From NCBI RefSeq assembly GCF_003334765.1, contig NZ_QOWT01000001.1: a stretch of 64,000 nucleotides of DNA, one strand, 5' to 3'. The notes below the pieces were generated by a model. That model did not search any database and was not told the origin of the DNA. It was given only the letters and a program-made list of their open reading frames with translations. This DNA is from Escherichia coli. GTDB taxonomy: Bacteria; Pseudomonadota; Gammaproteobacteria; Enterobacterales; Enterobacteriaceae. This document shows, piece by piece, positions 19,179-34,035 of the stretch (position 1 is its first letter; every line of letters starts with the position of its first letter). The translations under genes and the position numbers were made by a program.

Positions 19179-20679
<1,501 letters not shown>

Positions 20680-20692
20680 TGTTGACTCCGAA

Positions 20693-20712
20693 TGCTGGTT
20701 ATCTATCCAGTG
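20693..20712. promoter_or_regulatory. LexA (SOS) box upstream of cho
   Basis: Reverse complement CACTGGATAGATAACCAGCA is a near-palindromic CTG-N10-CAG LexA-type operator, 14 nt upstream of the cho start. Confidence 0.65.
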
Positions 20713-20761
20713 TAACAGGCGGGAAGCGATTAAAAAAGAGGCGGGTCGATGACAAAGGTTA

Positions 20762-20872
20762 CACCGTCTGACGTGCTACGCCTGTCAGGCCTATTCGACT
20801 CCTGCAATGTATTGAATTTGCATAGTTTTATAGGTCGAATAAGGCGTTCACGCCGCATCCGGCGTGAACAAA
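20762..20872. repeat. Composite REP/BIME-type repeat (two REP-like palindromes flanking a conserved spacer)
   Basis: Contains gcctgtcaggcctat and taggtcgaataaggcgttcacgccgcatccggcgtgaaca; the spacer cctgcaatgtattgaatttgcatagtttta recurs nearly identically at 27949-27978. Confidence 0.7.
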
Positions 20873-20908
20873 TTACTCTTTTTCGCACAATCCAATATGT
20901 GCAAATTA

Positions 20909-21736
20909 TTACTTTTTCCAGAAATCATCGAAAACGGTAATTGGCGGACGGCGTTTATGTTCGGTTTTCAGATACCAGTTCTCTATTGTTCTGGCGACCT
21001 GTTGAGGTACGTTTTTCCCTTCCAGATAGTCGTCGATATTGTCATAGGTCACGCCGAGTGCCACTTCATCTGGCAGAGAAGGGCGATCATCTTCCAGATC
21101 GGCCGTTGGCGCTTTCTTATAAAGGTGTTCCGGGCAAGCTAATGCCGCCAGTAACTGTTTACCCTGACGTTTGTTGAGACGATACAGCGGATTAATGTCC
21201 GTACCGCCGTCACCATATTTAGTGAAGAATCCGGTAATGGCTTCTGCTGCATGATCGGTGCCCACCACGACACCGCTGGTCATACCCGCAATGCTATATT
21301 GTGCTTTCATCCGCTCACGCGCTTTTTCATTGCCACGGACAAAATCGCTCAGTTCAATGCCTGCTTCCCGCAATGCCTGTTCGCTGGCCAATACCGCGCC
21401 CTTGATATTAACGGTTAATACGCGATCCGGTTGAATAAAGGCAATGGCATCCTGGCAATCTTGTTCGTCGGCCTGAACACCATAGGGCAGGCGTACGGCA
21501 ATAAATTGCAGTGATTCGTTGCCGGTTTCCAGGCGCAGCTCATTAATCGCCATCTGGCACAGCTTTCCGGCAAGCGTGGAGTCCTGACCGCCGCTGATCC
21601 CGAGCACCAGTGATTTAATGAACGGATAAGTTTGCAGGTAGCTTTTCAGAAAATCGACACTACGACGAATTTCCTCTTCAGCATTAATCTGCGGTTTTGC
21701 GCCCAGCGCCTTTATTATTTGTTGTTGCAATGTCAT
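20909..21736 (-). CDS. nadE: NH3-dependent NAD+ synthetase
   Basis: 275 aa; [22 protein letters not shown] and PP-loop SGGQDS. Confidence 0.96.
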
Positions 21737-33997: not shown

Positions 33998-34035
33998 AAC
34001 TGTCGATACGTACAGTATAGGATTTTTATACAGTG
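33998..34035. promoter_or_regulatory. Tandem LexA (SOS) boxes upstream of ydjM
   Basis: AACTGTCGATACGTACAGTA (CTGT-N8-ACAG) at 33998-34017 and CACTGTATAAAAATCCTATA (reverse strand) at 34016-34035. Confidence 0.8.

Follow-up and report, generated by a model that had tools for sequence, protein, structure and literature searches.

The 20-mer CACTGGATAGATAACCAGCA, which lies 13 nt upstream of the GTG start codon of cho (ydjQ), is the already known SOS operator of that gene: a real and strongly conserved LexA box that is of middling strength and ordinary in position. Taken as a whole, the evidence is best explained by a LexA operator of cho that overlaps a putative extended −10 promoter, a reading that we hold with high confidence. 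The LexA dependence and damage induction of cho are drawn from the literature, and the sequence, score, conservation, and flanking elements of the site are established here.

The segment at 19700..21000 of the 64-kb stretch of E. coli DNA that was analysed (the window) matches K-12 MG1655 with 100% identity and occurs in all 5426 of 5426 complete E. coli genomes. RefSeq places nadE, cho, and ves at this locus, in an order identical to the nadE-cho-ves of K-12, and the window runs in the opposite orientation to K-12; CACTGGATAGATAACCAGCA is the reverse complement of window positions 20693..20712. The operator and the gene that follows it comprise these features:

20693..20712, minus strand: LexA (SOS) box, the 20-mer CACTGGATAGATAACCAGCA, identified by sequence, heterology index, the published motif, and the conserved CTG/CAG arms.
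20710..20695, minus strand: CTG-N10-CAG core CTGGATAGATAACCAG, an inverted repeat within CACTGGATAGATAACCAGCA.
20686..20689, minus strand: Shine-Dalgarno sequence GGAG, 3 nt past the LexA box and 6 nt ahead of the GTG, conserved across loci.
20677..20679, minus strand: cho GTG start codon, the first start codon of the open reading frame and the start given by RefSeq; the aligned codon is GTG in 76 of 79 related loci.
19792..20679, minus strand: cho (ydjQ) coding sequence, 295 aa, excinuclease Cho, assigned by the NF007833 equivalog and RefSeq.

The encoded protein matches the NCBIfam equivalog NF007833 with 579.7 bits against a cut-off of 367, with residues 1-287 aligned to profile positions 1-287. 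Because this alignment begins at residue 1, and because RefSeq agrees, the GTG at 20679 is taken as the cho start. The gap between CACTGGATAGATAACCAGCA and the GTG is 13 nt long (TTCGGAGTCAACA), which places the last base of the box at −14. A sequence-only reading of this DNA had pointed out a palindromic box of the LexA pattern near the cho GTG, and the sequence, place, and distance that it gave are right. A second LexA box, starting from the CTG at −6 to −4, was considered and rejected, as this CTG lacks a CAG partner at the right spacing. Cho carries out the 3′ incision at the ninth phosphodiester bond in nucleotide excision repair and aids with interstrand crosslinks (PMC10085695). At the far end of the gene, cho (minus strand) and ves (plus strand) are convergent, and their 3′ ends share 41 bp (19792..19832) in the RefSeq annotation.

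Conservation of the operator was assessed in a set of one genome per species, which yielded 80 cho loci, the most divergent of them at 69% protein identity. Upstream sequence was available for 79 loci from about 19 enterobacterial genera, among them Escherichia, Salmonella, Citrobacter, Klebsiella, Raoultella, Enterobacter, Kosakonia, Leclercia, and Lelliottia, as well as Phytobacter, Franconibacter, Pluralibacter, Cedecea, and Buttiauxella. At every one of these 79 loci, the best LexA site within 200 nt upstream sits 11–16 nt (mostly 12–13 nt) upstream of the codon that corresponds to the E. coli GTG in the alignment. Bases A2, C3, T4, and G5 of the left arm and C16, A17, and G18 of the right arm are invariant in 80/80 cho operators, and the spacer between them is variable, as would be anticipated for a LexA operator that selection maintains. 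Only G (48 operators) and T (32 operators) occur at position 6, whereas at position 15 there are 51 operators with A and 28 with C. From these counts, CTGG/CCAG and CTGT/ACAG appear freely interchangeable at the cho operator. Within the species, the 40-mer around the box is identical in 4706 of the 5426 complete E. coli genomes, and a further 691 carry 1–2 base differences.

The comparison also delineates elements that flank the box. The five positions just 5′ of the 20-mer, which are outside the LexA motif, read T (77/80), G (80/80), any base, T (80/80), and A (80/80), and, once bases 1–4 of the box are added, they spell TGnTA(C/T)ACT. The ten positions upstream of TGnTA carry almost no information, and positions −15 to −7 of the cho alignment are unconserved. 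We read TGnTA(C/T)ACT as a putative extended −10 promoter. The E. coli version of the hexamer, TACACT, has four of six consensus matches, and TATACT, with five of six, is found in 36 loci. A strict consensus scan of 20500..21000 found no promoter, which counts against the assignment but would also fit a weak promoter that is without a −35 element. The corresponding features of the window are:

20709..20717, minus strand: putative extended −10 element TGtTACACT, proposed from conservation, with the TG at 20717..20716 and the hexamer TACACT at 20714..20709; it covers the first 4 bases of the LexA 20-mer.
20700..20704, minus strand: predicted transcription start zone, placed by sigma-70 geometry 5–9 nt 3′ of the putative −10 and lying in the spacer of the LexA box.
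20732..20742, minus strand: conserved block GCCTCTTTTTT (GCCnCTTTTTT), with up to 2.0 bits per position and a constant spacing to the box in 79 distinct sequences.

Exactly 17 nt separate the T-tract of the conserved block (20737..20732) from the putative −10 hexamer downstream of it. In many genera, the alignment shows GCCnCTTTTTT to be the U-tract side of a GC-rich hairpin that constitutes the nadE terminator. This U-tract is positioned at the exact −35 distance (17 nt) in all genera; that it doubles as an upstream promoter element is a speculative reading that we consider unlikely. An alternative promoter, composed of TTGTCA (20755..20750), a 17-nt spacer, and TAATCG, was rejected; its −10 has only two of six matches and its TTGTCA occurs in Escherichia alone. 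In E. coli, the upstream arm of the terminator has apparently been split from the T-tract by an insert with a REP element. The nadE-cho intergenic region contains a REP-like hairpin GTTCACGCCGGATGCGGCGTGAAC at 20787..20869, and minus-strand positions 20787..20829 match the Rfam family of the ES036 (CssrF) sRNA, scoring 42.9 bits where the gathering score is 37.6.

A genuine LexA site in this place might act mainly as a roadblock to read-through from nadE, with no dedicated cho promoter at the box; nadE and cho are co-directional and 229 nt apart, and the scan found neither a consensus promoter nor a canonical terminator between them in E. coli. Such a roadblock, however, leaves TGnTA(C/T)ACT unexplained, given that its bases beyond the LexA motif hold a fixed register in 77–80 of the 80 loci. 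Polymerases reading through would moreover face a strongly structured intergenic RNA, since the 182-nt spacer transcript is far more stable than its shuffled counterparts (z-score −5.4) and ends in a U-tract, and in many genera a clear GC hairpin with its T-tract, the nadE terminator, stands directly upstream of the box. We therefore regard the roadblock as very improbable and retain the reading of an operator that overlaps a putative promoter of its own.

Published data connect this same site to the SOS response. The exact CACTGGATAGATAACCAGCA 20-mer is given as the cho LexA motif in a list of UV-induced genes (PMC3009722 Table 4), and cho (ydjQ) is included among the E. coli genes with a known SOS box, after Fernandez de Henestrosa 2000 and Courcelle 2001 (PMC6590174 Table 1); the published cho (ydjQ) SOS box of K-12 and the site described here share an identical 20-mer, gene, and position. 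A heterology index of 7.5 and a 5.1-fold dependence of cho expression on LexA cleavage have been reported (PMC11228462 Table 1). The same table holds evidence to the contrary, as RNA-seq of the wild type under AZT gave a value of 0.77-fold for cho, which is no net induction (PMC11228462 Table 1). UV induced cho 2.4-fold in exponential phase and 36.6-fold in stationary phase (bioRxiv 10.64898/2026.06.22.733644). For Salmonella ydjQ, the box has an index of 6.69 and nalidixic acid induction was 3.3-fold, but ydjQ-gfp fusions, as counter-evidence, gave no detectable fluorescence (PMC8072944). A 2026 preprint links dcm to cho expression (bioRxiv 10.64898/2026.06.22.733644); a direct connection through Dcm methylation of the cho box was considered and rejected, as the box contains no CCWGG (its arms read CACTGGA and ACCAGCA).

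In order to score the site, we took the 17 other E. coli LexA boxes in print (PMC3009722 Table 4), with cho omitted, and derived a Berg-von Hippel heterology matrix from them. The resulting leave-one-out index of the cho box is 7.9 with the asymmetric matrix and 8.02 with the symmetrised matrix, inside the 0.3–12 range of the 17 published boxes. In its resemblance to TACTG(TA)5CAGTA, the site is accordingly comparable to E. coli-type (gammaproteobacterial) sites that bind LexA. This ranks the cho box between lexA and ruvA/uvrD and ahead of dinG, ftsK, dinB, and polB. The sequence-only reading had proposed a LexA matrix score or heterology index as a check on the box and had named a poor index together with an absence of SOS induction as the outcome that would speak against it; what was found is a mid-range index (8.0 computed here, 7.5 published; PMC11228462) along with published UV induction.

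With the symmetrised matrix, the cho box has the best LexA score among all positions of the 64-kb window. The tandem boxes of ydjM rank second and third and serve as an internal positive control. The window has 27 copies of the bare CTG-N10-CAG core, where dinucleotide-preserving shuffles predict 12.7 and none of 100 shuffles reached 27; CTGG-N8-CCAG is found four times against 0.7 expected. As only 3 of the 27 cores score as plausible LexA boxes, the excess of bare cores likely reflects how frequent CTG and CAG are as codons, and not LexA sites.

With 27 such cores in the window, the core alone means little, and on that ground one might take the cho box for a chance palindrome that has no regulatory role. 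Against this stand the full-length score, the best in 64 kb and matched by any site in only 0.5% of simulated 64-kb sequences, the invariance of the arms over about 19 genera in which the spacer varies, and the published LexA dependence and UV induction, so that coincidence is effectively refuted. Equally negligible in our estimate is that the box serves some other regulator, or folds as a hairpin in the leader RNA of cho, instead of being a LexA operator: no support for either was found, a 4-bp CUGG/CCAG stem is all that the arms could form, the conserved positions agree exactly with the LexA motif (invariant CTG/CAG, an AT-rich spacer, and only T or G at position 6), no Rfam family matches the box, and the left arm would not be transcribed at all if the predicted start is right. 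What stands is a LexA operator, whose arms and position can be compared with those of other SOS genes.

The cho box had been called non-canonical in the sequence-only reading on account of its CTGG and CCAG half-sites. These arms are indeed present, but the label is overstated, and the box is non-canonical only mildly. Its CTG-N10-CAG core is intact; position 15 is C (CCAG) in 6/17 published boxes and position 6 is G (CTGG) in 2/17, amounting to G in 8/34 half-sites of the symmetrised matrix. The box of ruvA, CGCTGGATATCTATCCAGCA, has CTGG and CCAG together. Although this ruvAB operator serves another gene in another promoter context, it resembles the cho box in combining both arms and is identical to it at 16 of 20 bases, and the two have similar indices, with published values of 7.6 for ruvA and 7.5 for cho (PMC11228462) and values of 8.3 and 8.0 computed here. 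G and C at positions 6 and 15 would represent tolerated variants that give mid-range LexA affinity.

The suggestion of a promoter and operator that reach into the translation initiation region holds in part. The box appears to overlap the putative −10 and the predicted start, and the leader would be short, but 3 nt separate the end of the box from the GGAG and 13 nt separate it from the GTG, so that it overlaps neither the ribosome-binding site nor the start codon. A box this close to the start codon is normal for SOS genes. The window itself provides an example in ydjM, a known SOS gene belonging to the same published group of later-found SOS genes as cho. Its two boxes are:

34017..33998, minus strand: proximal ydjM LexA box TACTGTACGTATCGACAGTT, score 10.7, second best in the window.
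34035..34016, minus strand: distal ydjM LexA box CACTGTATAAAAATCCTATA, score 12.3, third best in the window.

Between the proximal box and the ydjM ATG (33983) there are 14 nt, so that the geometry near the start codon is the same as at cho; unlike cho, ydjM carries a pair of overlapping boxes whose arms are CTGT and whose scores are weaker (10.7 and 12.3 compared with 8.0). Many boxes of Salmonella SOS genes are likewise found 6–21 bp from the start (PMC8072944 Table 1).

The orthologous box TACTGGATGAATAACCAGTT of S. enterica subsp. arizonae and diarizonae is located 13 nt before the same GTG, and the Salmonella ydjQ box scores better than that of E. coli cho (6.69 published, PMC8072944; 6.25 here). 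For Salmonella Typhimurium, the distance from the ydjQ box to the start has been given as 0 (PMC8072944 Table 1). In Salmonella and Citrobacter, the box CTGGATGAAT (loci L006, L007, and L009-L018) contains an ATG that is in frame and 27 nt upstream of the GTG. The distance of 0 in PMC8072944 probably arose from an annotation that begins at this ATG. The conserved GGAG-N6-GTG speaks for the GTG as the true start.

These observations suggest a model for the control of cho, an SOS-inducible gene for a UvrC-homologous nuclease. A LexA dimer would bind the inverted CTG/CAG arms of the cho box, the left arm of which would overlap the −10 hexamer of the weak extended −10 promoter, with the likely transcription start in the spacer of the box. 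Bound LexA would then cover both the −10 and the start and would therefore keep RNA polymerase off the promoter, a steric mechanism that we infer from the layout. Occlusion of the −10 and start by LexA is a classical SOS mechanism. Upon DNA damage, RecA-stimulated self-cleavage of LexA would free the cho promoter, and derepression would yield a cho mRNA with a short leader, predicted at ~21–25 nt, that would be translated from GGAG-N6-GTG.

A more speculative proposal concerns a double role for the G of CTGG. With TACACT as the −10 hexamer, this G falls at −5, two bases downstream of the hexamer. A G at that discriminator position stabilises open complexes through sigma region 1.2. The operator might then be a compromise between two readers, in which G6 is kept for the sake of a promoter that lacks a genuine −35, at a small cost in LexA affinity. 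G6 is present in 48/80 cho operators compared with 2/17 LexA boxes in general, and its mirror C15 in 28/80, counts that come from phylogenetically non-independent loci. Counter to such a dual role, CACTGT operators with the weaker hexamer are common, and a comparison across the cho loci gave no clear pattern of compensation between G6 and a weak hexamer. We consider the compromise unlikely.

The literature has contained both the site and its regulation for more than 20 years, and the operator carries little weight as a discovery. What is added here is the comparative footprint, with its putative overlap between the operator and an extended −10 element. The control region of cho is composed, in order, of the terminator T-tract, the putative TGn −10, the LexA box, GGAG, and GTG, and this order is kept at fixed spacing across the Enterobacteriaceae; because of this layout, cho expression would be low and would occur only after LexA cleavage.
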